From the IMG/VR virus record IMGVR_UViG_3300025018_000139: a stretch of DNA of 64,000 nucleotides; one strand, written 5' to 3'. The position numbers and the translations under genes are program-made. The notes under the pieces were generated by a model, which had not been told where the DNA came from, ran no database searches, and worked only from the letters and a program-made list of their open reading frames with translations. Below, piece by piece: positions 416 to 61,973 of the stretch (its first letter is position 1; every line of letters starts with the position of its first letter). Source of the DNA: an uncultured virus (IMG/VR IMGVR_UViG_3300025018_000139). Taxonomy: Duplodnaviria; Heunggongvirae; Uroviricota; Caudoviricetes.

Positions 416-941
416 AAAAAATTGGCTTCAAAACAACGATGTTTTATTTGAAAAAATAAAAAATTCTTTAAATTTCAAAGAGCATATAATTGAAATGTAT
501 GGGAAGAAAATTCCTATGCCAAGGCTTATAAGTTATCACGGAAATGAAAGTTATTCTTATTCTGGACAAATTCATAAAGCAGAACCTTGGACAGAAGAAC
601 TTTTATTTATCAAATCAGAACTAGAAAAATTCTCTGGTTATGAATTTAATTCTTGCCTCGCCAACCTTTATAGAGACGGAAAAGATTCAGTTTCCCCACA
701 TTCTGATGATGAAAAAGAAATAGGTCCAGTTGTTGCAAGCGTTTCACTTGGAGCACCTCGAAGATTTTTAATTCAAATCAAAGATAAGTCGGAGCCAATC
801 CAAGAATTTTTGCTTGGAAACGGAGATTTGATTATTATGCATGAAGGGGTTCAAAAGACTCATGTTCACTGGGTTCCAAAAACAAAGAAAAAAGTTGGCG
901 AAAGAATAAATCTTACATTTCGACAAGGAATTAGAAAATGA
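402..941 (+). CDS. alkB: AlkB-family 2OG-Fe(II) dioxygenase (ALKBH2/3-like)
   Basis: NSCLANLYRDG, HSDDE (HxD), HWVPK and RINLTFR motifs; ATG at 402 preferred over TTG at 396. Confidence 0.92.
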   Translation: MLTHKKNWLQNNDVLFEKIKNSLNFKEHIIEMYGKKIPMPRLISYHGNESYSYSGQIHKAEPWTEELLFIKSELEKFSGYEFNSCLANLYRDGKDSVSPHSDDEKEIGPVVASVSLGAPRRFLIQIKDKSEPIQEFLLGNGDLIIMHEGVQKTHVHWVPKTKKKVGERINLTFRQGIRK

Positions 942-1372
942 GCACATTTGATTTTAACGATGGAAATGGTCCTGTTCCCGCGAAGCGGCATAGAAATCCC
1001 AATGGATCGGAAGGAGGCTGGGTTGCAGATAGTGCTTCTGTTAGAAATTCTGCTTTTATTGGAAAAAATGCAAAGATTTTTGGAAATTCTTTGGTTTTTG
1101 GAGATGCTCAGGTTTTTGGAAAAGCTCAGGTTTATGGAAATGCTGTGGTTTCTGGAAATGTTTGGGTTTTTGGAAAAGCTAGGGTTTTTGGAAATGCTCG
1201 GGTTTTTGGAAATGCTGAGATTTCTGGGAATGCTGAGGTTTATGGAAATTCAAAAATAAAAGAAAAATCAAAAATCAAAAATAAGAAATTTCAATTTGAT
1301 TTCAATTATTCTTTTATCCAAAAATTTGAAGAAGAATTAGAGCCGATTAAAGAAAAAGAATTAGCAGATTAG
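938..1372 (+). CDS. Hexapeptide-repeat protein, copy B
   Basis: Head FDFNDGNGPVPAKRHRNPNGSEGGWVADSA, G(N/D/K)AxV(F/Y/S) repeats, tail FQFDFNYSFI. Confidence 0.9.
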   Translation: MSTFDFNDGNGPVPAKRHRNPNGSEGGWVADSASVRNSAFIGKNAKIFGNSLVFGDAQVFGKAQVYGNAVVSGNVWVFGKARVFGNARVFGNAEISGNAEVYGNSKIKEKSKIKNKKFQFDFNYSFIQKFEEELEPIKEKELAD

Positions 1373-1394
1373 CACATTTTTGATTGAAAAGGTC

Positions 1395-1422
1395 TTGACA
1401 TCGGACTCGCAAAGCTTATATT
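1395..1422 (+). promoter_or_regulatory. Sigma70-type promoter
   Basis: TTGACA-N16-TATATT in the intergenic gap before the 1452 ORF. Confidence 0.75.
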
Positions 1423-1451
1423 GAAAGCTCCCTCCAGCCTTCGATGAGACC

Positions 1452-1844
1452 ATGCGCAAGAAGATCATAAAGCAATGCCTTCACCTTGCTCGGGCAAAAA
1501 ACAATCCCGAGTCCCACCCAGAATACAACAATTTTCACCATTTCTCTTTTATTGTTCAAAACAATAAAATTCTTGAAATGGGATTTAATCGAAAGGGTCC
1601 GCCCCTAGAGGGCTTTGGATACTCCCAAGAGTTTGGAAAAATCCATTCCGAGAACGATGTTTATCGTAAGGCCAAGGGAATCATTGATCATTCTAAGCCT
1701 TTTGATATTGTTAATATTCGTCTAAATAAGCGCGGTCAGCTTAGGCTTTCAAAGCCTTGTTCTTGTTGCGCAAGCTTTTTGCGTGTGGTAGGATGTCGAC
1801 ACGTCTACTTCTCCACGAATGACGGATTTGCAAAGGTTGTATGA
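1452..1844 (+). CDS. Cytidine/deoxycytidylate deaminase-fold protein
   Basis: HSE (HxE) and KPCSCC (PCxxC) zinc-deaminase motifs. Confidence 0.8.
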   Translation: MRKKIIKQCLHLARAKNNPESHPEYNNFHHFSFIVQNNKILEMGFNRKGPPLEGFGYSQEFGKIHSENDVYRKAKGIIDHSKPFDIVNIRLNKRGQLRLSKPCSCCASFLRVVGCRHVYFSTNDGFAKVV

Positions 1845-2206
1845 AAATTATGAGAATTTGGCTTGACGATGAAAGACCCGCTCCACAAGGCTGGCTTCTC
1901 GTTAAATCAGCTCAAGAAATGATTTCCATATTGAAAGATTCGAAGGTTTTTGAAATTTCTTTGGATAACGATCTTGGATTAGAAGATCAAGAAGGATATG
2001 ATGTTGTCAAATTTCTTGAAGAAGCCGTCTTCAATGATCCTTCCATTCACATTCCAATTATTCATGTTCATACAGCCAATCCTGTTGCTAGGCAAAAGAT
2101 GTTGGCAGGAATTGAAAATATTAAAAAATTTAAAGTGACAAAATATACTTCTCCTCGCTATGATGAAGTATATTTTGAAGGAGTAAAAATTCTAAATGAG
2201 CAATAA
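1841..2206 (+). CDS. Cyclic-phosphate-processing receiver-like domain protein
   Basis: RIWLDDERPAP, ISLDNDLG, GYDVVKFLE and IHVHTANPVAR motifs typical of this phage family. Confidence 0.75.
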   Translation: MKIMRIWLDDERPAPQGWLLVKSAQEMISILKDSKVFEISLDNDLGLEDQEGYDVVKFLEEAVFNDPSIHIPIIHVHTANPVARQKMLAGIENIKKFKVTKYTSPRYDEVYFEGVKILNEQ

Positions 2207-2696
2207 GTTATTCTTTGATTTTAATGATGGAAAAGGTCCGGTTCCGGCCCATCGCCATGTTAATCCTGATGGAACGGAAGGCGGTTGGGTGGCGGATAGT
2301 GCTTTTGTTGAATCAACATGTTTTGTTGGAAAAGATGCAAAGGTTTATGGAAAAGCTAGGGTTTCTGAAAAAGCTGAGGTTTTTAGTGGAGCTCAAGTTT
2401 TTGGAAATGCTCAAGTTTCTGGAAATGCTTGGATTTATGATAATGCTCAGGTTTTTGGAAATGCTGAGGTTTATGGAAATGCTTGTGTTTTTGAAAATGC
2501 TCAGGTTTCTGGAGATGCTAGGGTTTTTGGAGAGGCTTTGATTTATGGCAACTCAAAAATCAGAGGCGCTTCAGACATTAAAGGAAACTCCAGAATTCAT
2601 AATAAGTCTTTTAGATTTAATTTTTCTTACTCAGACATAATCTGTGAAGAATCTGATTTTAAAAAAGAAACAATTGAAGAAAAAGTCCAAGCATGA
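2196..2696 (+). CDS. Hexapeptide-repeat protein, copy C
   Basis: Same head (FDFNDGKGPVPAHRHVNPDGTEGGWVADSA), repeat core and tail (FRFNFSYSDI). Confidence 0.9.
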   Translation: MSNKLFFDFNDGKGPVPAHRHVNPDGTEGGWVADSAFVESTCFVGKDAKVYGKARVSEKAEVFSGAQVFGNAQVSGNAWIYDNAQVFGNAEVYGNACVFENAQVSGDARVFGEALIYGNSKIRGASDIKGNSRIHNKSFRFNFSYSDIICEESDFKKETIEEKVQA

Positions 2697-3178
2697 ACAT
2701 CTTCGTTTTAGATTACGATCCTCAAAAAGCGGCCGCTTTGCACTGCGATCGTCACGTCATAAAAATGATTCTTGAATCAGCACAAATGCTGTGCTCTTCA
2801 ATTCATTGTCATGACAAGAGTCGGGCAGTAAAATATAAGCCGACTCATATAAACCATCCTTGCACCATTTGGGCACGAAAAAGCCGAGACAACTTTATGT
2901 GGCTCGTTCAGTTGTCTAAGGCGCTTGTTGACGAACACCTCTTGAGGTATCCGCGGTCAAGCGAACACAAGTCAGCCAACGTCATTAGGGACTGCGAGAG
3001 CTTATTTCATGTCATTCCAAAAGGGTACATGACCGAATTTGCTCAGGCTATGCCTGACGAATATAAAAAAGAATGCGCGGTCGATGCATATCAAGAATTC
3101 TATAGAAAAGACAAGGTAAGATTTGCAACATGGAAATCGCCTAGGTCAACTCCTCAATTTATGCTAGCTGGCTATTGA
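2693..3178 (+). CDS. Pyrimidine-dimer DNA glycosylase/endonuclease V-like protein
   Basis: MNIFVLD, HCDRHVIKMILESAQML, YKPTHINHPCTIW and FAQAMPDEYK signatures. Confidence 0.8.
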   Translation: MNIFVLDYDPQKAAALHCDRHVIKMILESAQMLCSSIHCHDKSRAVKYKPTHINHPCTIWARKSRDNFMWLVQLSKALVDEHLLRYPRSSEHKSANVIRDCESLFHVIPKGYMTEFAQAMPDEYKKECAVDAYQEFYRKDKVRFATWKSPRSTPQFMLAGY

Positions 3179-3210
3179 CTTGCTTTTAACCCATGATTAG
3201 ACTTTCAGAC

Positions 3211-3630
3211 ATGAAAGACAACAGCATCAACTCTTTTAAAATGCAACTCCCCCAACCTCCTAATGGCTGGGATTGGGAAATGATAGTTCATATCGGAATT
3301 ATCCTTTGCGGACCAGATGGTCGTGCATTTTATTGCCTTTATCCTGACGATAAAAATGCAAAGCTGGCTTATGCGATCGATGCTTTTTATATTGAAGATT
3401 TTCGAATTGCTGTATCTTGCTTATCTTCTCATATCGGTACATTTAAAATGTTTAATACTAATGGAGGGATTTCAGACAACATCGAAACCGATCCAGCTAA
3501 AACTTTTCTAAAGTATCTTAATGATCGTCAAAGTAAATTGGGTAATGTAGATATTACCAAGTACGGAATTCTTGAATTTGACTGCAATGGAAATGTATGG
3601 GTTTCACTGAAAGAGCTTTCAAATGAATAA
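3211..3630 (+). CDS. Hypothetical protein
   Basis: ORF; start moved to ATG 3211 because TTGACT-N17-TAGACT (3175-3203) overlaps the longer start. Confidence 0.6.
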   Translation: MKDNSINSFKMQLPQPPNGWDWEMIVHIGIILCGPDGRAFYCLYPDDKNAKLAYAIDAFYIEDFRIAVSCLSSHIGTFKMFNTNGGISDNIETDPAKTFLKYLNDRQSKLGNVDITKYGILEFDCNGNVWVSLKELSNE

Positions 3631-3806
3631 TGACGAATCTTTTGGAAATGCATTAATTAGGGCATTACACGAAGCAAAAATTTTTGTGAAGTCCAAAACA
3701 TGGGCTGATCATCGATTTGTTTGGATTGCCTTGTCCGCTGTTGGAATTAAGATTTCAATCCTGGATCAAGATCAGGAAATTAAAGATGCATTGAAAGAAT
3801 TAAAAA

Positions 3807-4217
3807 ATGAGTAAATCAAATGATCCAATTTATCGGTCATCATTTCCTGAACTAACAAATGAAAAATTGGAAGAATTACTAATTGAAAAAAGGCAAATAT
3901 CTAAGGACAAATTTTTACTAAGCCAACTTTCATTTGGCTTGGCTTCTCTTTTTTCAATTACGACCTATATAATTGCTAGTGTTGACGAGTCCCTTCCTAC
4001 AAATATCTTGCTTATTGTTGGAATTGTCTCTTTGATTGTTTCTTTTATCTCAATTCGATCAATAATATTTCTGATATTTATATCAGAAAGAATCAAGGAA
4101 AATAAAACACAGATTACGAGAGAAAATATAAGAATCTTAATAAAGCAAAAAAATCTGAATTCAGAAGGTTTGCTTTATATTTCTCCTCATAAGCAATATC
4201 ATCACGATCATTTTTGA
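3807..4217 (+). CDS. Membrane protein with two predicted TM helices
   Basis: Two long hydrophobic stretches. Confidence 0.65.
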   Translation: MSKSNDPIYRSSFPELTNEKLEELLIEKRQISKDKFLLSQLSFGLASLFSITTYIIASVDESLPTNILLIVGIVSLIVSFISIRSIIFLIFISERIKENKTQITRENIRILIKQKNLNSEGLLYISPHKQYHHDHF

Positions 4218-4219
4218 AC

Positions 4220-4248
4220 TTGACATGAGGGCCAGAACGATCTAAAGT
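4220..4248 (+). promoter_or_regulatory. Sigma70-type promoter, probably leaderless transcript
   Basis: TTGACA-N17-TAAAGT, ATG follows after a 6-nt gap. Confidence 0.7.
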
Positions 4249-4254
4249 GAGTTT

Positions 4255-4512
4255 ATGGACGAACTCAAAGAAAAACTCAGTGCCCTAGTTGAATCTGCCG
4301 AATCATACGACGATGCTTGTGATGAGCTTAGCGATGCAATGTATGAAATTGAAGAGGCTCTTGATGATTCAGGCGCAAATGACGAATTAAAAGGTAAAAT
4401 AGAGGCATTTCTTAAAAAATATGATCCAATTTTGGATCGGGGAAATGACATGATTTGTGAAGTTGATGATCTTCTTCAATCTATAGAAGATAATCAATCA
4501 ACAAAGAATTAA
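4255..4512 (+). CDS. Small, highly acidic helical protein
   Basis: 85 aa, D/E-rich, with its own promoter. Confidence 0.75.
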   Translation: MDELKEKLSALVESAESYDDACDELSDAMYEIEEALDDSGANDELKGKIEAFLKKYDPILDRGNDMICEVDDLLQSIEDNQSTKN

Positions 4513-5153
4513 GGATATTATGATCGCAAAATTTGATCCAGATGCAATTATTGCTTATGACTTGGAAAGGAAAAATCCAGCAAGCGATGATATTCATTCT
4601 CTTATTCGGAACATTGCTGACAAGCCTCATAGGGCGCCCGTATATATCAAACAAGAAATAGAAGATGCTGTCGAAAATCGAACCAAAGAACTTCTCAAAG
4701 AAAATGAAGATCTAAAAGAAGTCTTGCGACTTTACAGAGAACTCTTGTTGACAACCAAACCAAAGAGCTTAAATTGAAGCTATGAGCCAGACAAACGAAT
4801 TCTTAGAAATTTATCGATTGCAAGTGCTATGAACATAAAAATGATAAAAATTCCTTCAGGCCCAGATTGGCAATCCAAATTGACAAATGAGGAAAAGCTT
4901 TATTTTCCTTGTGTTGAAAATGAGATCGAGCGCACACCGCCAACACCTAAATGGAGCTTTTTAAGCGATAAAGATGTAATTGACATAAAACGTCGCTTGC
5001 GCTTAATCATAAACAAATTGAACAATGACAAGCGAGGAACTCCAGAAGCTCTTTTTGAAACAATCAAAAGGATTACAGAAAATGCAATTATTCCAAAAGC
5101 TTTGCACATTTATCCTTGGAATATGAATTTTCAGAAAAAAAGGAAGGAAAGGA

Positions 5154-5447
5154 ATGGACGAAAATAATAAATTGTATGCATTCTGTGAGTGTAGCAATAT
5201 GAATTTCTCAACCTATCTTCATGCTGAGGTAACAAAAGTTCATGATGATGGAATGGTTTCAGTAAAAGGCTATACAGGTTGTAAATTTGTTCCCGTTCTC
5301 TTGTTACCTCTTGAGGCTGGCCAAAAACTTGGAAAAGAAGTAGACAAAACAAATAAAGAGATTCATGACAAGATTGGCGATGCAATACATAGCGGCACAG
5401 CAAGGCTAAGATCTTTGCTTAAAAGAACCGTCCCTTCAATCAAATAG
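5154..5447 (+). CDS. Hypothetical protein
   Basis: ORF with upstream AGGA, translationally coupled to neighbours. Confidence 0.6.
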   Translation: MDENNKLYAFCECSNMNFSTYLHAEVTKVHDDGMVSVKGYTGCKFVPVLLLPLEAGQKLGKEVDKTNKEIHDKIGDAIHSGTARLRSLLKRTVPSIK

Positions 5448-5456
5448 AAAGCTAAA

Positions 5457-6311
5457 ATGAATAATAACGATAAAATCAACAAGATCTTGTCGAACATTAA
5501 AAAAGCAGCAGAAGCCTTATCTGAGGCTGATCATATCATTGTAACATCTGGTGCAGGAATGAGTACCGATTGTGGAATGCCAGACTTTCGAGGGAAAGAT
5601 GGGTTCTGGAATGCCTATCCAAAATACAAAGAGCTTGGATTAAATTTTTACGATCTAGCTCAGGCTAAATGGTTTAAAGAAGATCCTCATCTTGCTTGGG
5701 GATTTTATGGCCATAGGAAAAACATGTACCAGAATTGTGTTCCACATTTTGGATACAATTTTCTTAAAGAATTGTCCTTGAAAAAAGATATGTTCTTTAT
5801 TACATCAAATGTAGATGGATTATTTGAAAAGTCAGGAATTGACAAAAATAGGATTTGGGAAATTCACGGCTCAATTCACAAATTTCAACATATTGAAACT
5901 CATTGGTATGACAAAGATAATCTTTCAAATGAAATCATTTCATCGGAAGGGTACGATATCGAAATCGATGAAAGCATGAGAATCAAAGATCTTCCCAAAA
6001 AAGACGGTCTTATTCTTCGTCCAAATATTGCGATGTTTGGAGATTACAATTGGAATCAAAAAGAAGCATTGAGGCAACAAGAAGCATTTAATGCTTGGGA
6101 ATTTGGTGTCCATGGGAAAATTGCAATTTTGGAATGTGGAGCAGGCGTTGCCATTCCTTCCATTCGAATGATTGGAGAAAGTTTAAAAAATAAATATTCT
6201 GCCAATTTTATTAGGATTAATACTGATGATTATGGTTGTTTATCAGGCATCCCTATCCCAATTAATGGAGAAAAGGCATTTAAAGCTATTTCAAGCCTTA
6301 TGCAGCAATAA
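5457..6311 (+). CDS. Sir2-family NAD-dependent deacylase
   Basis: SGAGMSTDCGMPDFRG, TSNVDGLF, EIHGS and LRPNIAMFGD motifs. Confidence 0.92.
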   Translation: MNNNDKINKILSNIKKAAEALSEADHIIVTSGAGMSTDCGMPDFRGKDGFWNAYPKYKELGLNFYDLAQAKWFKEDPHLAWGFYGHRKNMYQNCVPHFGYNFLKELSLKKDMFFITSNVDGLFEKSGIDKNRIWEIHGSIHKFQHIETHWYDKDNLSNEIISSEGYDIEIDESMRIKDLPKKDGLILRPNIAMFGDYNWNQKEALRQQEAFNAWEFGVHGKIAILECGAGVAIPSIRMIGESLKNKYSANFIRINTDDYGCLSGIPIPINGEKAFKAISSLMQQ

Positions 6312-6312
6312 A

Positions 6313-7017
6313 TTATCTTGCTAGAGAAAACATATGCTGAGAACTAAAATATTCAGCACCACCTGAAGCTATTTTTTCTTCAAATTGTTGTCCAAGGCCA
6401 TCTTTATGAGAATTTAGAGCGTCAACTAATTTTTTATGATTCATAATTGCTGAAGCAGAGCTAACTCCGCCGCCACCAGATCTATAGGCATGATTTAAGA
6501 AATCGGCAGAAGGACCAAAGTGAGTTGAAAAGCAATCGTCTTCTTTTGAATCAGTTTTTGTATCATCAACCAAGTCCAAGGCAGAACGTTTACTTGTATC
6601 AAAAGGTAATGCCTGTATGTCCGATCTATTATTTTTATAGTATTTCCATACGGATTTTGCCGAAGAACTAACAGAAGAACGATCAGGCATCAAAGTTTTG
6701 CTGGGGACGTGATTCATGGCAATATCATACATGGTTGGTCCAAATCCCTTTACGGCAGCAACAGACGTTATCTCCCAGGCATCATGACAAGGACCCCATC
6801 CTTCATGTTTTCTCACGGTAATATTTCCAAGAATCATTGATTTGTCAATAATCATCTTTTTTTCTTTTTTCATTGTTTGAACAAAAGAAACTGCATCATA
6901 CAAAACAAAATGCATGGAATTTCCCTGCTCAGACTTATATAATCCAAAATTATCAATATTTGCTTGCATCGCTTCAAGCAAAACCATTCTAATATATTTG
7001 CGTAAATTCTTCATCAT
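6313..7017 (-). CDS. Hypothetical protein, possible divergent GNAT-like fold, putative virion protein
   Basis: SVAAVKGFGPTMYDIAM resembles a GNAT motif A; N-terminus KNLRKYIRMVLLE. Confidence 0.5.
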   Translation of the reverse strand: MMKNLRKYIRMVLLEAMQANIDNFGLYKSEQGNSMHFVLYDAVSFVQTMKKEKKMIIDKSMILGNITVRKHEGWGPCHDAWEITSVAAVKGFGPTMYDIAMNHVPSKTLMPDRSSVSSSAKSVWKYYKNNRSDIQALPFDTSKRSALDLVDDTKTDSKEDDCFSTHFGPSADFLNHAYRSGGGGVSSASAIMNHKKLVDALNSHKDGLGQQFEEKIASGGAEYFSSQHMFSLAR

Positions 7018-7346
7018 TAAAATCCCATACTTATTTGGCTTCCAAGAGCCTTTGAAACAATCTCATTTGAGCAGCCTTCCAATGATTTAGATTTGCATTT
7101 AAAACCAAGCATCTCAGCTTTTTTGATTGCGCGGTCCATTAAAGATCTTTGAGTTATATCGGATTTATAAGGCAATTCTTTCATTTTTAATATTTCTTTG
7201 GCAATATCACTTAAATTTCTAGATGCTTCGATTGCATTTGTCTGATTCCAAAAATTGTTGTATTCTCTCTTTGTCACACTGCCGTAGACCATGTGATCTC
7301 GTGATTCAATCAATTCAAGTATCACTTTCTTTAAAATGCTGCTCAT
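7017..7346 (-). CDS. Hypothetical protein (start revised to MSSILKKVILELIES)
   Basis: The longer ORF overlaps copy D on the other strand; ATG 7346 is preceded by ATATTTATA. Confidence 0.65.
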   Translation of the reverse strand: MSSILKKVILELIESRDHMVYGSVTKREYNNFWNQTNAIEASRNLSDIAKEILKMKELPYKSDITQRSLMDRAIKKAEMLGFKCKSKSLEGCSNEIVSKALGSQISMGF

Positions 7347-7408
7347 ATGTCTATAAATATTGTTTTTAATGCTGTTTTTTAAAGAAATGGAAGAAAAGGA
7401 ATTAGAAA

Positions 7409-7960
7409 ATGAGCACATTTGATTTTGAAGACGGAAATGGGCCAGTCCCCGCGAAGCGGCATAGAAATCCCAATGGTTCAATCGGTGGCTGGGTTGCGGA
7501 TTCTGCTTCTGTGGCATTGTCTGCTTTTATTGAAAAAGATGCTTTGGTTTTTGGAAATGCTAAGATTTATGGAGATGCTAGTGTTTCTGGAGATGCTTTA
7601 ATTTATGGAAATGCCCAGGTTTATGGAGATGCTCGTGTTTCTGGAAATGCTAGGGTTTTTGGAAATTCTTGGGTTTTTGGAGATGCTAGGGTTTATGGAA
7701 AAGCTGATGTTTCTGGAAAGGCTAGGGTTTATGGAAATGCTAGGGTTTATGGAAAAGCTTGGGTTTGTGGAAAAGCTCAGGTTTATGGAAAAGCTCAGGT
7801 TTATGGAAAAGCTCAGGTTTATGGAAAATCAAAAATAAAAGGAAAATCAAAAGTTTTCGATAAGAAATTCAAATTTGATTTCAATTATTCTTTCGTCGAA
7901 GAATTTGAAAAAGAAGAGATTAAAGAAGAGATTAAAGAAAAGGAATTAGAAAATGCTTAA
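7409..7960 (+). CDS. Hexapeptide-repeat protein, copy D
   Basis: Conserved head and tail, about 16 repeat units, flanked by a 21-nt direct repeat (7391-7411 and 7935-7955). Confidence 0.9.
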   Translation: MSTFDFEDGNGPVPAKRHRNPNGSIGGWVADSASVALSAFIEKDALVFGNAKIYGDASVSGDALIYGNAQVYGDARVSGNARVFGNSWVFGDARVYGKADVSGKARVYGNARVYGKAWVCGKAQVYGKAQVYGKAQVYGKSKIKGKSKVFDKKFKFDFNYSFVEEFEKEEIKEEIKEKELENA

Positions 7961-8303
7961 CAAAACAGATAATCACCCAATGAGACGATCTGATTCTCTT
8001 GAAGTATTTAACTCTCATGTAGAATGTTCCTATTGTTCACATTGTTATTATGGTCGAGATACAGAATATGACATGATTAGTAAGTGTCTTCATCCAGAAA
8101 AAGTCGTAAAAAATCCTTGGGGAGAAGGGATGGCGCCTACATGCAAAGACTCTAATCCAGAAGGACTTTGCAAACTTTTTAAGCCAAGCTTTCTAACAAA
8201 AATATTGAGATTTTTTGGAAAAAGAAAACCCATGCTCATAGAAATTAAAGAAAGGACTCTCGACACAACATTCCAGCTCAAAGATGCCGGAAGATATTAT
8301 TAA
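7953..8303 (+). CDS. Cys-rich putative zinc-binding protein
   Basis: CxxCxxC...C...C...C pattern, similar to the 11390 ORF. Confidence 0.6.
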   Translation: MLNKTDNHPMRRSDSLEVFNSHVECSYCSHCYYGRDTEYDMISKCLHPEKVVKNPWGEGMAPTCKDSNPEGLCKLFKPSFLTKILRFFGKRKPMLIEIKERTLDTTFQLKDAGRYY

Positions 8304-8304
8304 T

Positions 8305-20841: not shown

Positions 20842-21153
20842 ATGAAACTTTTCTTTTCGATATTTCTTACTTACTTCGGAACCGCCAGCTTTGTTGTTTC
20901 AATAATTTTTGCAATCCTTAAGGCATTTTCTGTGGCAGTAGCTGGCGGTTGGTCTTGGGGCTTTGTTGCTTCGCTGGGAATTATAAGCCTTGCCATGATT
21001 GCTATTGGACAAGTTGTTGCTTGGAGCTTTGCAAAACAAGAGTCTAAAAAAATGTTTAATGGTTTTTCTGACCTTACGGAGAATGCTTATATGAAAGAAA
21101 TCGATTGGCTAAATGGTCCACCAGAAAACCAGGACGAACCTAAAGGAAGGTAA
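20842..21153 (+). CDS. Two-TM membrane protein
   Basis: Two hydrophobic helices linked by GGWSWG. Confidence 0.7.
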   Translation: MKLFFSIFLTYFGTASFVVSIIFAILKAFSVAVAGGWSWGFVASLGIISLAMIAIGQVVAWSFAKQESKKMFNGFSDLTENAYMKEIDWLNGPPENQDEPKGR

Positions 21154-21154
21154 T

Positions 21155-26279: not shown

Positions 26280-26738
26280 ATGAACACGTTTGATTTTGGA
26301 GATGGCAAAGGTCCGGTTCCCGCGAAGCGGCATATCAATCCTAATGGAGAAGAAGGTGGCTGGGTGGCTGATTCGGCCTATGTGGCATCGTCTGTCTTGG
26401 TTGCTAGAAATGCAATGGTTTTTCAAAATGCTGAAGTTTGGGGGAAGGCTGAAATATGGCAAGATGCTAAAGTTTTCGGATTTGCCAAAGTTTTCAATAA
26501 TGCGATAATTTCTGATAAAGCAGAAGTTTTTGGGACTGCTCGGGTTTTTGAAAATTCTATAGTTTCAGGAAAATCAAAAATAAAAGGAAAATCAAAAATA
26601 AAAGGAAAATCAAAAATTATTGACAAAATTTTTCAATTTGATTTTTATTATTCCGACATCACTGACAATGATGATTATGAAGAAATAAAATACGAAACTA
26701 ATAAAATGGAATGGAAAACAGCATATGAAAACCAATGA
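26280..26738 (+). CDS. Hexapeptide-repeat protein, copy E
   Basis: Head FDFGDGKGPVPAKRHINPNGEEGGWVADSA, tail FQFDFYYSDI. Confidence 0.9.
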   Translation: MNTFDFGDGKGPVPAKRHINPNGEEGGWVADSAYVASSVLVARNAMVFQNAEVWGKAEIWQDAKVFGFAKVFNNAIISDKAEVFGTARVFENSIVSGKSKIKGKSKIKGKSKIIDKIFQFDFYYSDITDNDDYEEIKYETNKMEWKTAYENQ

Positions 26739-27297: not shown

Positions 27298-27957
27298 TTG
27301 GCAAATAAGAATTTTGAAAAATTCTTTGATTTCAATGGAAATGGTTTGGTTCCAGCCCATCGGCATAAAAATCCTGATGGATCGGAAGGAGGTTGGGTTG
27401 CGGATTCGGCTTTTGTTTCAAATTCAGCTTATATTGGATATAATGCTCAGGTTTCTGGATGCGCACGAATAAACAATAATGCTAAAATTTTTCATAATGC
27501 TAAAATTTTTGAAAATGCAGAGATTCATGATGAAGTTGTAGTTTGTGGGGATGCCAAAGTTTTTGGCAGAGCAAGATTATGGAATAATGTTATCATAAAT
27601 GACAGCGCTCAGGTTTTTGGCTACGCTGACATTTCAGATAATGCAGAAATATGTGGAATGGCTCTCGTCTATGGAGGGGCAGAAGTCTCTGGTTTTGCAA
27701 AAATTTATGGAGAAGCTCAGGCTTATGGAAGTGCAATAATATGTGACGAAGCAGAGGTATGCGGAAAATCTTCTGTCACAGAAAATTCTAAAATTTATGG
27801 AAAGTCCAAAATTCAAGGAAAATCAAAGATTCAAGGAAAATCAAAAATGAAAGATAAGTTATTTAAATTTAATTTTTGTTATTCAAACATTATTTGCGAA
27901 GAAGCCTCTGAAAAAGAAGAAGAAAAAGAAAAGGAAGTAAAAAATGAACGAACCTGA
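27298..27957 (+). CDS. Hexapeptide-repeat protein, copy F (longest complete copy, most diverged)
   Basis: Head FDFNGNGLVPAHRHKNPDGSEGGWVADSA, tail FKFNFCYSNI. Confidence 0.88.
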   Translation: MANKNFEKFFDFNGNGLVPAHRHKNPDGSEGGWVADSAFVSNSAYIGYNAQVSGCARINNNAKIFHNAKIFENAEIHDEVVVCGDAKVFGRARLWNNVIINDSAQVFGYADISDNAEICGMALVYGGAEVSGFAKIYGEAQAYGSAIICDEAEVCGKSSVTENSKIYGKSKIQGKSKIQGKSKMKDKLFKFNFCYSNIICEEASEKEEEKEKEVKNERT

Positions 27958-34754: not shown

Positions 34755-35426
34755 ATGCGACTCGTTTGTATTTCAGATACCCATTCTCTTCATCATAACC
34801 TTGACGGACAACTTCCTGATGGAGATGTCTTAATTCATGCGGGAGATTTTTGTGGTCAGAATAGCATCATTTCCGCGGATGCTTTTCTTGATTGGTTTGC
34901 AGATCAGCCTCACAAATATAAGGTTTTTATTGCAGGAAATCATGATGGCCCTTTTGAGAAGACACCAGATTGGGTAAAAGATGTACTAAGCGAGATAAAT
35001 CCTCCGCTTTTCTATCTTCAAGATTCAGGAATTGAAATTGAAGGAGTTAAGTTTTTTGGAGAGCCGTGACAGCCAGAATTTAGAAATTGGCATTTTAATT
35101 TGCCACGCGGAAAGAAATTGGCAGAAAAGTGGAGTCTAATTCCATCTGATACGGACGTTTTGATTACCCATGGGCCTCCATATGGAATCCTTGATCAATG
35201 CCATTATTGGGATCCATATTTTGGCATCGATTATAATCGAAACGTGCATATTGGATGCAGAGATCTTTTAAATGAACTTAAGAGAATCAAGCCGAAAGTT
35301 CACATATTTGGCCATATTCATGAAAGTTATGGACAAATGAGACAAGATGACATAACGTTTATAAATGCTTCGCATATGACAGGAAATTACGAAGCAAAAA
35401 ATCCCCCAATTGTTGTCGACATCTAA
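34755..35426 (+). CDS. Calcineurin-like metallophosphoesterase with one in-frame TGA (35067-35069)
   Basis: ISDTH, HAGD and AGNHD before the stop; QPEFRNWHFNLPRG, LITHGPP and FGHIHE after it in the same frame. Confidence 0.88.
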
Positions 35427-50696: not shown

Positions 50697-50697
50697 A

Positions 50698-53954: not shown

Positions 53955-56314
53955 AAAAGAAAGACCAACACTTAAAAGATGAAAAATGGAATAAATACGA
54001 TATTGATCAGACCCTTGCAAAATTCAATGTCGAAGAACCATTTTACGGTCATATATCTGCAAATATAAATAAATACAAAACAAAAGACTTGGATACTGCT
54101 GGGGTTAGCGTTCAAAATGGGAAAATGTGCCTATTTTATAATGAAGAGTTTTTTCAAAGCCTAAATTGGAGAGAGAGACAAGGGCTTCTTATTCATGAAT
54201 TTTTGCACCTAATTCTTAATCATGCAACCTCAAGAATGAAAAAGGATAAAAATGGAAATCCTGACAAAGCATGGTTTTTTGCCTGCTTCCCAGAAGGAAC
54301 AATTTTAGCTGATGGAAAACCAATAGAGGAATTTAAAGAATTTACTATCGGGCGAACTGGCCTTACCAAAGTCAATGCTATAATTCCTAAAGAATACAAT
54401 GGCAAAATGATAAAAATACAATGTGGAGGAATGGAATATGTGTCAACACCAGAACATAAATTTAGAATTTGCAGAAAAAAAAACAAAAGAAGGCCAATAA
54501 AACTAAATGAGCCAGAATGGATTAGTGCTGAAGATATAAAAGATGACGATTATCTAATAATCCCAAAATTGCCAGGGGAAAAGTATGAAATACTAGATTT
54601 AGAAGAATTTATAAATTTAGAAGAAAAATCCAATGGAAGAAATGCAATTAAAAATAAAGAATTGCTTTTAGATGAAGATTTGGCATGGCTATTAGGATTG
54701 TACACTGGAGATGGCTCTGGAAAACAAACAGTTTCCATATGTCTAGGTGCTCACGAAATTAAAATAATTGAAAAAACAATAGAAATAGCTAAAAAATTAA
54801 AATATAAGACTTCTTTTGGATGTTCTCAAAAAACTGTTTCAGATATAAAATTCGGAGGGCCAACATTGGCAAAAGCATTCAAAAAATGGTGTGGAAGTGG
54901 AGCTAAAAATAAAAAGATTCCTGATTTTATATTGCTAAACGAAAATAAAAATATAGTAAAATCTTATCTTCAAGGACTTATAGATAGCGATGGCTATATA
55001 GCCAAAAAAAATAAAAACCCAACATATGGAGTAGATACAAGTTCTAAATTACTTGCATCACATATTAGATTATTATTGTCTAAACTTGACATTGGATTCC
55101 ATGGCCGAACTTGGTATCAAAAAGATAGATATATAAATAATAAATTTTATAAAGGAGGTACTCCTATGTATAGAACCAATTGGAGCTGGGAGCCTTCTTT
55201 TAGTGAAAGAAATTTTTGTGGAAAAGTAATACAATCATATTCACATAGCTGGAAAAACACTTCTGAGGGGATCGCAATTCCAATTAAGTCAATTTCTTCA
55301 GAAGAATGGTCGGGCACCGTTTACGATATAAACACTGATGATAGTTCATTTATCGTAAACGGTGCCCTTGTCCACAATTGTGACTTTGCTGTAAATTCCT
55401 TAATTGATGAAAGCAGACTCCCGCCAGGCGGACTAATACCAGGAAAATGGAAAGAAGTTTTGCCAGAGCATCGTCACCTATATTCTGCTGATACATTGGA
55501 TGCTATGGAAAAGTTTCGTAACATGGTTTGCAGTTGGTCCAAAGGAGAATCTGCCGACTGGTATTATGAGCAAATAAATGAAAATAGAGATATATTTGAC
55601 AAACTAAATAAAGAGAATGTTCTTGCGTTGTCTGATGATCATGGAAAATGGGAAGAGCTTTCCTCTGAAGAAAAAGAAATTGTTGAAAACAATGTAAATA
55701 GAATTACAGAAGAAGCTGCTGAAACATGCAACAATAGCAATCATTGGGGAAGTGTTTCATCAAAAGTTCGGGAAATTATAAATGAGATACTAAAAGGAAA
55801 AATTGATTGGATTGATCTTTTAAAGTACTTTGTTGGAAATAGCTTAACTTCGCACCAGCATTCAACCATAAAAAAGATAAATCGAAGATATCCTTATATT
55901 CACCCAGGAAAAAAAAGAATAAGAACAGCCAATATTGCTGTTTGCGTCGATCAAAGTGGCTCTATTGATAATAAGGATTTGGCAAAGTTTTTTTCGGAAC
56001 TAAATGGGTTGGCAGATCATACAGAATTTATTGTTATTCCATTTGATTCGCAGGTAATAGAAGATCAAATTTTTACATGGGAAAAAGGGCAACAGCTAAT
56101 GCCTGAAAGAGTTGCACGTGGAGGAACAGATTTTGATGTTCCAACCAATTGGACTAATGAAAATTCTGACAAGTATGATGCTGTTATTTTTATGACAGAC
56201 GGATTTTGTTCTAAACCAATTGATAGCAAAATTCCAAGATGCTGGGTGATCTCTCCGAAAGGAAGACTTCTTTTTGAAACAGACGAATTAAAAATACAAA
56301 TGCAAAATAGTTAA
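53951..56314 (+). CDS. Zincin-like metallopeptidase + vWA protein (DUF2201-like) containing an intein
   Basis: TAGV, HEFLH (HExxH), DFAVNSLI, DDHGKW, MIDAS DQSGS, GGTDF and FMTDG motifs. Confidence 0.88.
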   Translation: MKKKDQHLKDEKWNKYDIDQTLAKFNVEEPFYGHISANINKYKTKDLDTAGVSVQNGKMCLFYNEEFFQSLNWRERQGLLIHEFLHLILNHATSRMKKDKNGNPDKAWFFACFPEGTILADGKPIEEFKEFTIGRTGLTKVNAIIPKEYNGKMIKIQCGGMEYVSTPEHKFRICRKKNKRRPIKLNEPEWISAEDIKDDDYLIIPKLPGEKYEILDLEEFINLEEKSNGRNAIKNKELLLDEDLAWLLGLYTGDGSGKQTVSICLGAHEIKIIEKTIEIAKKLKYKTSFGCSQKTVSDIKFGGPTLAKAFKKWCGSGAKNKKIPDFILLNENKNIVKSYLQGLIDSDGYIAKKNKNPTYGVDTSSKLLASHIRLLLSKLDIGFHGRTWYQKDRYINNKFYKGGTPMYRTNWSWEPSFSERNFCGKVIQSYSHSWKNTSEGIAIPIKSISSEEWSGTVYDINTDDSSFIVNGALVHNCDFAVNSLIDESRLPPGGLIPGKWKEVLPEHRHLYSADTLDAMEKFRNMVCSWSKGESADWYYEQINENRDIFDKLNKENVLALSDDHGKWEELSSEEKEIVENNVNRITEEAAETCNNSNHWGSVSSKVREIINEILKGKIDWIDLLKYFVGNSLTSHQHSTIKKINRRYPYIHPGKKRIRTANIAVCVDQSGSIDNKDLAKFFSELNGLADHTEFIVIPFDSQVIEDQIFTWEKGQQLMPERVARGGTDFDVPTNWTNENSDKYDAVIFMTDGFCSKPIDSKIPRCWVISPKGRLLFETDELKIQMQNS
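54284..55378 (+). mobile_element. Intein (365 aa) with LAGLIDADG homing endonuclease
   Basis: Starts CFPEGT, block B TPEHKF, LLGLYTGDG and YLQGLIDSDG, ends VYDINT...NGALVHN with +1 Cys. Confidence 0.95.
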
Positions 56315-58634: not shown

Positions 58635-59396
58635 ATGCGAAGCGATATGGCAAAAAAGCTGTGTGAACGTCCTCGAACGAATGATGGTTGGGGTCGAATG
58701 GACACTTATGTCCGAAACAATAAAATTCGAGTTCAGGAGCTAGAAGAAGACGAAGATGGTGACGGAAATATCATTCTTGACGTTGATGACAGTGGCCGCT
58801 CACGACATCCCATGAGCATCGGACGAGGCTCAAAGGAGCTTGGAGAAAATTTGGCTCCTCTTTATCGCTTTTTGGACAAACAGGTCGGCCGCCCTTGGGA
58901 CAAGGTTTATAGCGAAATTCGAGAACAGGTTAGCGCAAATAGTGCAACTCAAATTCATATTCTTCAGCATGCCGAAACTCATGTTAGCGGATTTCAAGAA
59001 ACCTTGATTATAAAAGAAGATGGAAAGATTTATAGTGGAAATTATGGATATGAGCTTTCAAACGATGAGCTTTATATTCATCCTGAAACCAAAATTCTTT
59101 GCAAGTACAAAACTGATAAAAAAAAGTACCTATACAAATTTTGGCAAAATGTACATAATGTCAAAGAAAAAGACATTTTAAAAATTGAAGATTGTATCTA
59201 TTTCGCCAAAATGAATGGAACCTGGTATGAAATCACTTACGAGCAAAAATGGTCTCATGAAAATTATAAGTTTTCATTTAAGTCCTATTTTTTGAATTTT
59301 TGTGGACATCCTTTGGATTTCAAATACGGATACAAATTGCCATACGAAAAAAGAGCTATTCCAAAAAGCATTTTAAAGAGAATGGGACTAAAATGA
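58635..59396 (+). CDS. Conserved hypothetical protein
   Basis: ENLAPLYRFL.KQVGRPWDKVYSEI motif recalled from bacterial and phage hypotheticals. Confidence 0.6.
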   Translation: MRSDMAKKLCERPRTNDGWGRMDTYVRNNKIRVQELEEDEDGDGNIILDVDDSGRSRHPMSIGRGSKELGENLAPLYRFLDKQVGRPWDKVYSEIREQVSANSATQIHILQHAETHVSGFQETLIIKEDGKIYSGNYGYELSNDELYIHPETKILCKYKTDKKKYLYKFWQNVHNVKEKDILKIEDCIYFAKMNGTWYEITYEQKWSHENYKFSFKSYFLNFCGHPLDFKYGYKLPYEKRAIPKSILKRMGLK

Positions 59397-60700
59397 CAAA
59401 AAATAAAATCATTAAAGCAATTGAAGATCGTGGCGGAGAAGTTTTTATTGTCGGAGGAGCCGTACGTGATGATTTGCTTGGTCTTGAAAGTAAAGATATT
59501 GACTTCTTGGTCAGGCTCCTTACTTTCGATGAAATAAAAGAATCGATTTCTCACCTTGGAAAGGTTTTGGACCAAGAAGTTGGAGGCAAAGTCTCGATGC
59601 TCAAGATTACGATTGATGGTGAAGAATTTGATATCGCAATTCCTAGGACAAGCGAAGTAAGTACGGGCTCTGGGCATGGTGATTTTAGCATTGTCATGGA
59701 TCCTCATGCATCGGTGGAATCCGATTTATCTCGACGTGATTTTACAATCAATGCGCTTGCCAGGGATGCTAAAGGAAATATTATTGATTCCTTTGGTGGA
59801 CTAAAAGATATTGAAGATAAGCTTATTCGAGCAGTTGGAGAGCCCGAAGCTCGATTTATAGAAGATCCTTTGCGAATGCTGCGAGCTTTGCAGTTTGCCG
59901 TTCGGTTTGGATTTGAAATAGAAGAAAAAACTGCAAAAGCTATAAAAAATCTGAAAGGGCTCATTAAAACGATTTCAAGTGAAAGAATTTTCATGGAATT
60001 TGAAAAGGCTTGGACAAAGGGAAAAAATCAAGAAGCATTTGTAAGAATGCTTCTTGATTTTCAAATTGGAACCGAGTTGTTTGGTTCCAAATTCGAACCT
60101 ATTGCAATTGAAATCGAAGGAACAAACCAAGAAAAAGTCCTTTCGGGATTTATTAGTCTTTTTCTTTTTCATAAGCCCGGATTTGTTCTTGAGCCAGGCA
60201 TTATACAAACTACAAATAGAATGGCAAATCACTTAAGAATTGCTTGGGATTTTCTGCATTTAAAATCAGAAATTTGGAAATGGGCAGATCGTTCTCATTT
60301 AGCATTCTTTAATAAATTCTTTACAGCTTTGAAAAATAGAGAGTGTGACTGCGAAAATGGAGTCATATGGCTTTCCGAATCAGAAATCGTTGATGAATTA
60401 ACGTCGGCACGAGGAAATGGGGAATCAATTTCATTTAGCTTTGGATTCGGAGGAAAAGAAAGAACTTGGCGTGATTGTAAAAAATGCAAACCAGACTTTG
60501 AAGAAATTGTTAATTTCATCGAATTTTGCAAATCATGTCCAATGTCAGCAAAAGAACTTGATATTTCTGGGAATGAATTGATGGATTTTGGATTTGAAGG
60601 AAAAGAAATTGGAATAATCCAAAACAAAATATTGAATGCAATATTTGAAGAAGAAATTTCCAACAAGAAAGAAGAAATATTAAAATGGATTCAAAACTAA
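59393..60700 (+). CDS. Class II tRNA nucleotidyltransferase (CCA-adding/poly(A) polymerase family)
   Basis: VGGAVRD...DID, DLSRRDFTINA, EDPLRMLR, SSERI..E and ISGNELM.FG motifs. Confidence 0.92.
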   Translation: MTKNKIIKAIEDRGGEVFIVGGAVRDDLLGLESKDIDFLVRLLTFDEIKESISHLGKVLDQEVGGKVSMLKITIDGEEFDIAIPRTSEVSTGSGHGDFSIVMDPHASVESDLSRRDFTINALARDAKGNIIDSFGGLKDIEDKLIRAVGEPEARFIEDPLRMLRALQFAVRFGFEIEEKTAKAIKNLKGLIKTISSERIFMEFEKAWTKGKNQEAFVRMLLDFQIGTELFGSKFEPIAIEIEGTNQEKVLSGFISLFLFHKPGFVLEPGIIQTTNRMANHLRIAWDFLHLKSEIWKWADRSHLAFFNKFFTALKNRECDCENGVIWLSESEIVDELTSARGNGESISFSFGFGGKERTWRDCKKCKPDFEEIVNFIEFCKSCPMSAKELDISGNELMDFGFEGKEIGIIQNKILNAIFEEEISNKKEEILKWIQN

Positions 60701-61384
60701 AAGAGAAATATGATGTTGTTTATCGCAGGATTGGAGGAGTTGGCGTCGCTGTAATTCGACGAAATGAAGAAGATATTCTTTCCTGGCTTCCTCAGCAAAA
60801 CTTCTCAGGAGAAGATGGAAGCCCTATCTCAAGAAAACAATGTCCAGATGCCTGGAAGGTCGCTGATGTTCTTTCTTCGACTCATTTGCTAGTTTATCTT
60901 GCTCGAAAAGAAGCAAGAACTCTTGCAAAAATGTTTGCACGTGATTGCCAAAAGATTCCTAGGGGTTTTACTTCGCTAAAAATAGACGAGCATAATTTAT
61001 TGCTTTTTTGGGTTTATCAATGCATGAAAGAAGAGCATCTTCGAGGAGTTAAAGCAGGAATTAATTTTAAGCATGAAGACTCTCATGTTTCTCATGTCTT
61101 TGAGATGTTAAGATGGGAAGATGATGGAACCGAGGATGAAATATGGGGTGGCTACAAAAAAGGAAAAGAAATCATTAAAAAACTTTGTATTAAGGCAGGA
61201 ATGAAGGAATTTACAAAATGAATATTTTAGCTTGTGGATGTGGTGGAATTCTTGAAATTGCAATTGGTGGATTCGGAATGTTTATGGCATCAGTTGTTGG
61301 AGTAATGTTTTGGATTCGACAAAAAATAGAGAGATATTTATGATGACCCTCCCGAAGGAGGAAAATGAAAAAAGGAATTAGAAA

Positions 61385-61762
61385 ATGAGCACATTTGATT
61401 TTAATGATGGAAAAGGTCCGGTTGCCGCAAGGCGGCATAGAAATCCTGATGGTTCAATCGGTGGTTGGGTTGCAGATTCAGCTTTTGTTTCTAAAGATGC
61501 TTGGATTGGTGAAAATGCCAAGGTTTTTGGAAATGCTAAAGTTTATGGAAATGCAAAGGTTTATGGAAATGCTTGGGTTTGGGGAGAAGCTTATGTTTTT
61601 GGAAATGCTTGGGTTTCTGGGAAGGCTAAAATTTTTGGAAATGCTAGAATAAGAGGAAAATCAAAGATAAAGAAAAAGATTTTTCAATTTGATTTCAATT
61701 ATTCTTTCGTCGAAGAATTTGAAAAGATTGAAGAAAAGGAATTAGAAAATGAGCACATTTGA
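61385..61762 (+). CDS. Hexapeptide-repeat protein, copy G
   Basis: Conserved head, repeats and FQFDFNYSFVEE tail. Confidence 0.9.
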   Translation: MSTFDFNDGKGPVAARRHRNPDGSIGGWVADSAFVSKDAWIGENAKVFGNAKVYGNAKVYGNAWVWGEAYVFGNAWVSGKAKIFGNARIRGKSKIKKKIFQFDFNYSFVEEFEKIEEKELENEHI

Positions 61763-61973
61763 TTTTAATGATGGAAAAGGTCCGGTTCCGGCCCATCGGC
61801 ATAAGAATCCTGATGGATCGGAAGGCGGTTGGGTTGCTGATTCAGTTTTTGTTTCTAAAAATGCTTGGGTTTCTGGTGGAGCTATGGTTTATGGAAGATC
61901 AAAAAAAAGCAGCCAAATGGCTGCTTCTTTTTCATTTATCAAATATTCGAAGCAATGCCAGCAGCAGCTATGA
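61749..61973 (+). pseudogene. Hexapeptide-repeat protein, copy H, truncated tandem copy
   Basis: Intact head, about 2-3 repeats, then runs into a terminator; family tail missing. Confidence 0.75.
61901..61932. terminator. Bidirectional terminator
   Basis: A-run-GCAGCCA-AA-TGGCTGC-TTCTTTTT between convergent genes. Confidence 0.75.

Follow-up and report, generated by a model that had tools for sequence, protein, structure and literature searches.

In the window analysed here, the entire stretch of 64,000 nucleotides, which has the look of an accessory region in the genome of a large phage from an aquifer, a recurring 16-nt sequence, AAGGAATTAGAAAATG, probably marks the seam between units of a beta-solenoid gene family amplified head to tail, rather than the end of a mobile element. 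Movement of the copies as cassettes is unproven. Passive shuffling by short homology at the seam, resembling that of PeSL elements, is possible, and the position of an AlkB gene between two seams hints at it.

All eight copies of the family (A to H) matched a single HMM, and their hexapeptide beta-solenoid repeats match YdcK-type profiles (PF18836; PHROG 7964/5070). E-values against PF18836 were 4e-12 for B, 1e-12 for C, 8e-20 for D and 4e-7 for G, the last scoring 29.9 bits, slightly short of the 30-bit cut-off. F gave no PF18836 match at E ≤ 0.001, and its matches to Hexapep and LbH fell short of the respective cut-offs; D, G and F matched PHROG 7964/5070 at E 1e-22 to 1e-50 (D against PHROG 7964, E 2e-41). 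Alignment of the copies with phage homologues revealed a common N-terminal domain, FDFxDGxGPVPAxRHxNPDG..GGWVADSA. The search for further loci in IMG/VR was seeded with an alignment of five family sequences, the eight-sequence version being too divergent as a seed; 72 loci were retrieved through the N-terminal motif, and homologues at E ≤ 1e-10 numbered at least 1225. The C-terminal module of D alone (residues 135-183) matched nothing at E ≤ 0.001 when used as a query. Copy E is an eighth member that the text of the earlier note did not include.

Five exact copies of the 16-mer were found on the + strand (starting at 925, 7396, 7940, 61372 and 61736), each of them at one end, head or tail, of a gene of the YdcK-type beta-solenoid family, and versions with two mismatches start at 27931 and 3794. 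These seven matches at ≤2 mismatches compare with 0.35 expected, and none of 100 shuffles gave seven. Over 76.8 kb (the window and its flanks, from the same source) the site at 3794 is the only one at ≤2 mismatches that lies away from a family gene, a distribution at odds with the 16-mer being simply a common ribosome binding site (RBS) context, the outcome that the earlier note had named as refuting its proposal. That note had placed the 16-mer before B, D, G and H and in the coding tails of D and G, and every coordinate was right; the 14/16 match that it reported in the tail of F was likewise confirmed. A 63-aa ORF (3623-3814) and the C-terminus of a cREC gene were considered as family relics and rejected, any signal being no more than marginal where present at all (E 0.017 against a very small database). 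The bare 16-mer also had at least 120 matches in IMG/VR; the 120 listed are all single hits, and none of them adjoins a beta-solenoid family gene. These are chance matches, with nothing more to be read from them.

Features of the window, in order of position. SD, Shine-Dalgarno sequence.
Feature	Position	Strand	Remarks
Copy A	2..415	+	5′ end cut by window; complete gene of 213 aa in source contig; tail EELEHANA* contains AlkB ATG; HMM match
Diverged seam, A tail, GAAGAACTTGAGCATG	389..404	+	ATG 402-404 homologous in position to the 16-mer ATG; starts AlkB (MLTHKK...)
AlkB-like 2OG-Fe(II) oxygenase	402..941	+	Pfam PF13532, E 3.4e-30; bracketed by two seams
16-mer seam, exact	925..940	+	end of AlkB plus SD and ATG of B
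Copy B	938..1372	+	144 aa; PF18836 match
Decayed seam and relic head of lost downstream copy	1355..1400	+	truncated at the start of the best promoter-like site (1395-1422)
Copy C	2196..2696	+	166 aa; ATGA overlap with next gene start (2693)
Seam-like 16-mer, two mismatches	3794..3809	+	tail KELKNE* of 63-aa ORF; ATG of gene 3807-4217; family origin only a candidate
Left seam of D	7390..7411	+	22 nt identical to G tail, the last 21 also to D tail; reads (M)EEKELEN; longer than the 16-mer
Copy D	7409..7960	+	183 aa; first + strand gene past divergent intergenic region; PF18836 and PHROG 7964 matches
Right seam of D	7935..7955	+	D tail KEKELEN plus ATG (7953) of next gene
Copy E	26280..26738	+	152 aa; different head context and tail; next ORF begins inside tail (26725)
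Copy F	27298..27957	+	219 aa; tail 27931-27946 is 14/16 of the 16-mer; no ORF ≥30 aa from that ATG
Left seam and head of G	61370..61423	+	preceded by 7-codon mini-ORF 61365-61388 (MKKGIRK*), ATGA overlap with G start
Copy G	61385..61762	+	125 aa
G tail and H start	61734..61787	+	extant tandem seam; 54 nt identical to 61370-61423
Copy H	61749..61901	+	N-terminal fragment only; mosaic
Terminator-like hairpin	61907..61926	+	end of H family homology; boundary with convergent genes

In a tandem array of such genes, a seam would lie on either side of each unit, and the tail of one copy would form the translation-initiation region of the next. Copies G and H stand in this arrangement today, with the stop codon of G 13 nt inside H (overlap 61749-61762). 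The observation in the earlier note that G's tail is H's start stands, although the identical heads of the two copies extend for 54 nt rather than 52. Of the 25 positions in the decayed copy at the tail of B (1355-1379), 21 agree with the repeat and the head that follows it, as the note had stated, and its relic head reaches about 1400; in local alignment of the sequence past the B stop codon with the family head, none of 2000 shuffles scored as well. The extant G-H pair and the relic after B thus bear out the suggestion that units can duplicate. Upstream of D, the sequence matches the tail of G for 6 nt beyond the 16-mer. Longer relic tails were sought upstream of D, G and B and were not significant once the 16-mer was masked (972, 126 and at least 37 of 2000 shuffles as good, respectively), so that the relic-tail evidence is only 16-22 nt long; nhmmer matches at 7382-7421 (E 0.005) and 61336-61398 (E 0.017) are mostly due to the 16-mer.

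Similar arrangements were seen in other genomes. Three other phages (L124, L126 and L130) carry tandem copies of the family with overlapping stop and start codons and different seam sequences. In 9 of 58 non-redundant family genes, 7 of them among the 52 outside the window, the upstream sequence resembled the gene's own tail more closely than did 99% of a cross-contig null distribution. A single-copy gene of another virus (L149) ends ...KEKELENS*, and P0004, the one among the 120 best homologues to carry the same FxFxFxYS module, ends ...VLENV downstream of it.

The left repeat is 16 nt long at B, about 18 nt at G and 21-22 nt at D. It never terminates within the 13 nt upstream of the ATG, while its outer limit changes from copy to copy. 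A duplicate must bring its own RBS in order to survive, which accounts for the first observation, and the varying extent fits leftovers of a neighbour's tail combined with selection for the RBS rather than a fixed recombination site. The window is a short-read metagenome assembly, in which the joins of flanks to copies across identical seams of 31-54 nt depend on assembly.

In the frame of the upstream tail, the 16-mer encodes the family C-terminus K-E-L-E-N; the same purine-rich codons supply a Shine-Dalgarno sequence, AAGGA, 8 nt upstream of the ATG, together with the ATG of the next gene. AAGGA is present at -9 to -15 upstream of about seven other genes as well, and any SD-like word was found at only 23 of the 62 starts examined. 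The next ORF begins within the last 14 nt of five of the seven complete copies (A, C, D, E and G), and overlaps take the form of ATGA at AlkB/B and of 8-14 nt at A/AlkB, D/next gene and G/H. This layout, in which the start codon lies across the 3′ end of the preceding ORF and has an SD-like word 5-10 nt ahead of it, is that of a coupled junction, and translation of the adjoining genes may be coupled. Coupling of this type, where stop and start codons overlap and the upstream gene contains the SD sequence, is textbook operon and phage architecture, and AAGGA 8 nt ahead of an ATG that sits within or across the end of the preceding ORF conforms to it; the verbatim repetition of the same 16-31 nt at five junctions does not. 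Folding z-scores of the five seams ranged from -1.2 to +1.1, no better than shuffles, and the five 16-mers are free of promoter- and terminator-like sites.

The copies are mosaics produced by gene conversion. Identical blocks are shared by shifting pairs (A/H, 81 nt; A/B, 69 nt; G/H, 54 nt; A/C and C/H, 41 nt each), and H runs from a G-like seam through 81 nt identical to A and back to G-like sequence. When runs of polymorphic sites that agree between two copies were tested by permutation, copy F and all columns before +18 being left out, three of 21 pairs stayed significant under Bonferroni correction: C-H at p = 6e-4, and A-B and A-H with none of 5000 permutations as extreme in either case. 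Around the start codon, the 31 nt from -13 to +18 show no differences in any of the six pairs among B, D, G and H, while at the third positions in codons 7-40 the same copies diverge by 26-65%. Overwriting by short-patch gene conversion could keep the seam and the first six codons identical. The seam would also be triply constrained, as protein tail, as RBS and as an unstructured start region, and selection on it, a second force that we infer, could help to hold the sequence constant. Gene conversion together with translational constraint can thus freeze about 31 bases as paralogues drift.

Tandem paralogue families with concerted evolution by gene conversion are well known in large phages and viruses. 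The family described here is like them in its head-to-tail copies, the seam on both sides, the truncated and relic copies and the shifting identical blocks, and unlike them in that its seam is a dual-use stretch of C-terminal codons, SD sequence and ATG, and in that the non-family genes AlkB and 7953-8303 stop or start in the seam. In the history suggested by these features, the arrays would later have eroded, leaving H truncated, the copy after B reduced to a 45-nt relic, AlkB between A and B, and the copies scattered across 60 kb.

The AlkB gene is not accounted for by simple tandem duplication. Its ATG lies in the tail of A, and its end (...LTFRQGIRK*) lies in the perfect seam of B, where the 16-mer holds the last codons QGIRK and the TGA in a different frame; the earlier note had likewise described the left repeat of B as encoding the AlkB C-terminus and overlapping its stop. 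Replacement or insertion exactly at two seams is therefore needed, which is what a model of recombination between linkers predicts. Under such a model the seam of 16-22 nt would be a counterpart of PeSLs at the level of translation, offering a stretch of homology that can be carried from place to place. General phage recombination, with no dedicated recombinase, would there swap single genes, remove them as circles or bring new ones in, and AlkB would have entered the array by this route. D is flanked by a perfect 21-nt direct repeat (7391-7411 and 7935-7955, the right ATG starting gene 7953-8303, all as previously noted), and recombination between copies has demonstrably been active, as the identical blocks and the permutation test attest. 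Because every copy has the same orientation, forming direct repeats, crossovers would release circles. In the sole relative visible, from run X3 (∼88-90%), five extra bases lie immediately 5′ of the 16-mer; these would place its AlkB in the tail frame, ending ...KELENEHI*, like a fusion to a family tail. The same relative nevertheless keeps both the A-AlkB and AlkB-B adjacencies, and the contigs, to which the survey was confined, displayed no variant order, empty site or circle. AlkB is, moreover, the only non-family gene to end in a seam, a family gene on one side accounting for the seam elsewhere; a homology of 16-22 nt is short for exchange to be efficient; and the outer limits of the left repeats vary by copy. 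Shuffling by way of the linker is considered unlikely.

Close relatives of this locus were scarce. IMG/VR held no close relative of AlkB (a single 37% match, L193) or of its R2K ATP-grasp neighbour, megablast of 1-9000 and 59000-64000 against INPHARED returned no match, and a metagenome scan with a 24-mer of seam plus head recovered only three loci, all 100% identical to the window and representing its own source.

PeSL cassettes of T4-type phages consist of a σ70-like promoter and a terminator stem-loop between genes, and their exchange was demonstrated by comparison of near-identical phages and detection of mini-circles (Arbiol et al. 2010, PMC2839356; Comeau et al. 2014, PMC4122927). The seam shares with PeSLs its nature as a short conserved expression signal around individual accessory genes, in those parts of a large phage genome that are plastic, and a proposed exchange by general recombination, with no dedicated recombinase, in which the newcomer is expressed and its neighbours are undisturbed. 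It differs from them in being a translation signal within coding sequence, with no promoter, terminator or hairpin, and in that neither exchange between relatives nor mini-circles were seen in the contigs of four runs. A second precedent is gene 68 of mycobacteriophage Island3, an inserted gene flanked by a direct repeat of ∼50 bp, its C-terminal codons repeating those of the upstream gene; that repeat occurs once, with no paralogue family (PMC3029335). The stronger proposal, that the seam, kept identical by conversion, is a working translational linker for swapping single genes in a coupled chain, with AlkB as a captured gene and seam-to-seam mini-circles formed during infection, seems somewhat less likely again. 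Were a linker of either kind at work, the conserved-linker idea of Botstein and of the PeSL studies would extend from transcription to translation signals, and huge phages would have a simple route for slotting accessory genes such as AlkB into expressed chains.

A further possibility is that the region from -13 to +18 has been selected as a shared translational operator, the target of a RegA-like repressor or an RNA, with recombination being incidental. The identity of these 31 nt in four copies against the third-position divergence alongside would suit such a target, as would a block that spans about a ribosome or repressor footprint, is unstructured and, up to the ATG, also heads the non-family gene 7953-8303. 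No candidate regulator was found, however, the start regions of A, C, E and F differ from that of B, D, G and H, and the gene conversion already demonstrated suffices for the identity, making an operator improbable.

The earlier note had further proposed that units excise as circles and insert at translation-initiation sites, and had likened them to cassettes; integron cassettes, too, are promoter-less single genes bounded by a repeated sequence. Neither excision nor insertion is supported: no empty site, seam-to-seam joint or circular junction was present in the contigs of four runs, which as contigs cannot show rare variants. The many apparent joints that link 1-2.5 kb with 7.5-7.9 kb in run X1 had unrelated letters between their sides or fell inside 18-nt solenoid repeats, and are read as other paralogues or cross-mapping at 80% likeness rather than excision products. 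Nor is insertion at a fixed site supported by the varying repeat extent or by the layout in other phages, plain tandem arrays with other sequences. The note's observation that no recombinase or reverse transcriptase is visible holds for the 81 ORFs scanned (the window and a 7-kb upstream flank), among which no integrase, transposase or resolvase was found either. The repeats are direct and coding, with a length that varies by copy between 16 and 22 nt, unlike those of a transposon, IS or MITE, and no inverted repeat, dyad or hairpin was detected at any of the five seams. The attC-like imperfect inverted repeat, IntI-type tyrosine recombinase and attI/Pc platform of integrons were likewise absent from the sequence scanned. 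Site-specific cassettes, whether integron-like or of a new kind, with the 16-mer as the site of a recombinase encoded elsewhere in the genome, are consequently very improbable, for although D has an exact repeat on both sides and the 81 ORFs scanned cover only the window and its upstream flank, the supposed site codes for protein, varies in repeat extent, lacks dyad symmetry, is conserved as protein in another virus (L149), and adjoined the family in none of the IMG/VR matches listed.

If the 16-mer is the seam of an amplified family, as we favour, the window offers a clean example of how tandem duplication can produce sequences that look like the ends of mobile cassettes, and calls for caution in interpreting repeats in large phage genomes.

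The eight copies, A to H, all encode small beta-solenoid proteins of the YdcK type and belong to a single family (PF18836, PHROG 7964/5070). Each family protein combines a conserved N-terminal domain (FDFxDGxGPVPA..GGWVADSA), a middle part with a variable count of 18-nt (hexapeptide) repeats, and a C-terminal part in which a K-rich stretch is followed by the motif FxFxFxYS and then an acidic tail. It is a very large family: 1225 or more homologues reach E <= 1e-10, and 72 loci were found in IMG/VR.

Beta-solenoid family copies and the open reading frames that begin in their tails
Copy	Position	Strand	Start of next ORF	Remark
A	2-415	+	402	5' cut; next gene AlkB, its start at the position homologous to the ATG of the 16-mer
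B	938-1372	+		
C	2196-2696	+	2693	
D	7409-7960	+	7953	
E	26280-26738	+	26725	family member additional to those in the earlier note
F	27298-27957	+		
G	61385-61762	+	61749	next gene H
H	61749-61901	+		N-terminal fragment

The 16-mer found at copy heads and tails (AAGGAATTAGAAAATG, here called the seam) is exact at 925, 7396, 7940, 61372 and 61736 and has two mismatches at 27931 and 3794. Chance predicts 0.35 matches at two or fewer mismatches in the window, against the seven observed, a number reached by none of 100 shuffles. Direct comparison bore out the perfect 21-nt repeat that the earlier note had described around D. The same note was right that the tail of B matches repeat plus head at 21/25 positions, that the tail of F matches the 16-mer at 14/16, and that the C-terminus (...RQGIRK*) and stop of AlkB, the 2OG-Fe(II) oxygenase gene between A and B, lie within the 16-mer; the identity it reported between the heads of G and H is real, but spans 54 nt rather than 52. 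Nor is the 16-mer a general RBS context, a reading for which the note had called for a test: in 76.8 kb, comprising the window plus flanks from the same source, all matches at two or fewer mismatches touch family genes except the one at 3794. The bare 16-mer has at least 120 single matches in IMG/VR, and among the matches listed none of 120 adjoins a family gene. In the seam-like site at 3794-3809 (14/16), a 63-aa ORF has its tail KELKNE* and gene 3807-4217 begins; a database homologue, P0065, ends ...KKELKNEY. The site might be a solo seam remaining from a lost copy.

Read in the tail frame, the 16-mer (AAG GAA TTA GAA AAT G) encodes K-E-L-E-N, the final residues of D (KELENA*) and G (KELENEHI*). 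This tail is present as protein in other viruses, a single-copy gene in one IMG/VR locus (L149) ending KEKELENS*; another homologue (P0004) ends VLENV after the same module, which is found in only 1 of the 120 best homologues. The same bases supply AAGGA and, eight bases further on, ATG. About seven other window genes are also preceded by this SD form, AAGGA at -9 to -15, and of the 62 starts examined just 23 have any SD-like word. All five seams lack structure (fold z-scores -1.2 to +1.1), and no inverted repeat was found at them. The next ORF begins inside the last 14 nt in five of the seven complete copies (A, C, D, E and G). Since the tail codons also hold AAGGA and ATG, and next ORFs start in copy tails, the seam is, judged by its reading frames, a dual-use tail plus translation-initiation region. 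Two mini-ORFs were also observed, each ending at or shortly past the ATG of a family gene. The one before D (within 7386-7421; MEEKELENEHI*) was read by eye in the tail frame, and the one before G (61365-61388; MKKGIRK*) shares the frame of AlkB and has a strong GAAGGAGG SD able to pair with CCCTCC just upstream. They look as if termination-reinitiation were being kept.

Among B, D, G and H, positions -13 to +18 show no differences in 6/6 pairs; in codons 7-40 the divergence at third positions is 26-65%. Because the seam is identical while nearby third positions have diverged to this extent, its preservation involves more than shared descent. Identical blocks extend for 81 bases in A/H, adjoining one of 69 in A/B, and for 54 in G/H, 41 in A/C and 41 in C/H. 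In a Bonferroni-corrected permutation test, run with copy F and columns before +18 left out, 3 of 21 copy pairs passed. Gene conversion between copies is thus demonstrated, and a second preserving force may plausibly be a triple constraint, acting on the tail codons, the RBS and the open start region.

We consider it probable that the 16-mer is the unit seam of a paralogue family amplified in tandem and subject to gene conversion, and that it doubles as a translation-initiation region. The copies would have formed a head-to-tail array, in which the tail of one unit was the start region of the next, so that a seam flanks each copy. G and H are such a pair today, and tandem copies with stop/start overlap, but with seams of different sequence, occur in three other loci (L124, L126 and L130). 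Downstream of the stop of B lies a decayed family head that none of 2000 shuffles aligned equally well; it ends at the beginning of the region's best promoter-like site (1395-1422), and the family homology of H ends at a terminator hairpin (61907-61926). Upstream of D, 22 nt through the ATG, 6 nt beyond the 16-mer, are identical to the tail of G. The outer limit of the left repeat varies (B, 16 nt; G, about 18; D, 21-22). This is what one would see if remnants from a neighbouring tail had been shortened at random but kept as far as the RBS, and it does not fit a fixed site. When 58 non-redundant family genes were compared with a cross-contig null, nine had an upstream region whose similarity to the gene's own tail lay above the 99th percentile; seven of these nine belong to the 52 genes lying outside the window. 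Against this reading, the relic-tail evidence is short, since with the 16-mer masked the sequences upstream of D, G and B have no significant tail likeness. Elsewhere, in the IMG/VR contigs L162 (4630-6429) and L144 (5050-6507), five or more genes in a row, apparently unrelated to one another, end ...DDE/YDE/EDE and adjoin the following gene via the same GA(T/G)GA(T/A)GAATAATG stop/start junction; the beta-solenoid gene is just a single member of the row, and the junction looks like a genome-wide conserved motif in another phage.

The main rival, passive linker-type shuffling at the seam, appears unlikely, and the position of AlkB is what a linker-recombination model predicts. AlkB starts inside the tail of A and ends inside a perfect seam, so its placement needs an event at two seams, which likewise counts against the plain tandem reading. 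Both the A-AlkB and AlkB-B adjacencies are kept in a relative of about 88-90% identity (run X3), in which, going by the indel table, five extra bases just 5' of the 16-mer would put AlkB in the tail frame (...KELENEHI*). Seam-to-seam joints of the window's own copies were absent from the contigs of four runs, although contigs cannot show rare forms; the circular excision and the insertion at initiation sites put forward in the earlier note thus stay hypothetical rather than refuted. Consistent with the earlier note's statement that no recombinase or reverse transcriptase is visible, none of 81 ORFs scanned, from the window and its 7-kb upstream flank, is an integrase, transposase, resolvase or RT; all that turned up was a LAGLIDADG intein and one weak HNH-like ORF.

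The PeSL cassette of T4-type phages is the closest functional analogue (PMC2839356; PMC4122927); the seam is not a member of that class, however, because the defining promoter plus stem-loop is absent from it. Integron and transposon features are likewise absent. PMC3029335 describes a mycobacteriophage insert that has a C-terminus-encoding repeat at its flanks.

The window seems to be an accessory region from a large phage. Its G+C is 31-42% (2-kb windows), no tRNA genes were found in it, and INPHARED yielded no near match. It encodes ClpB, ClpS, a GroEL-type chaperonin and a subtilase; SNF2 helicase, Thg1, CCA-adding enzyme, RNA and DNA ligases and AlkB; and Sir2, an R2K ATP-grasp protein, a cREC receiver domain and an intein-bearing metallopeptidase-like protein. 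The sole exact source found was an aquifer metagenome, two JGI contigs of which are 100% identical to the window and reach 7.1 kb further left and 5.8 kb further right. By coordinate arithmetic both contigs terminate at 49888-49978, where they share an overlap of about 91 nt, so the 64-kb window is joined across a repeat region (49672-50055) in gene 49243-50379 (- strand), where an internal 135-nt repeat is 76% identical at 249-nt spacing.

An RNA-repair-type set (21113-22366, 31312-32001, 35722-36456, 38299-39432, 59300-60700; listed together with ClpB/ClpS/GroEL) comprises a T4 Rnl1-like RNA ligase, a second ligase or capping-type nucleotidyltransferase, Thg1, an RlaP nucleotidyltransferase and the CCA-adding enzyme. 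The cREC receiver, Sir2 and R2K ATP-grasp genes (1841-2206, 5457-6311, 8284-9312) are interspersed with beta-solenoid copies and DNA-repair genes (AlkB, Pyr_excise-like). At 53951-56314 a DUF2201/VWA-like putative metallopeptidase is broken by the intein with its LAGLIDADG homing-endonuclease domain. A calcineurin-like phosphoesterase is divided between two neighbouring ORFs (34755-35069 and 35100-35426), which match the N-terminal and the C-terminal half of its Pfam model; the split may reflect a frameshift, a pseudogene or an interruption.
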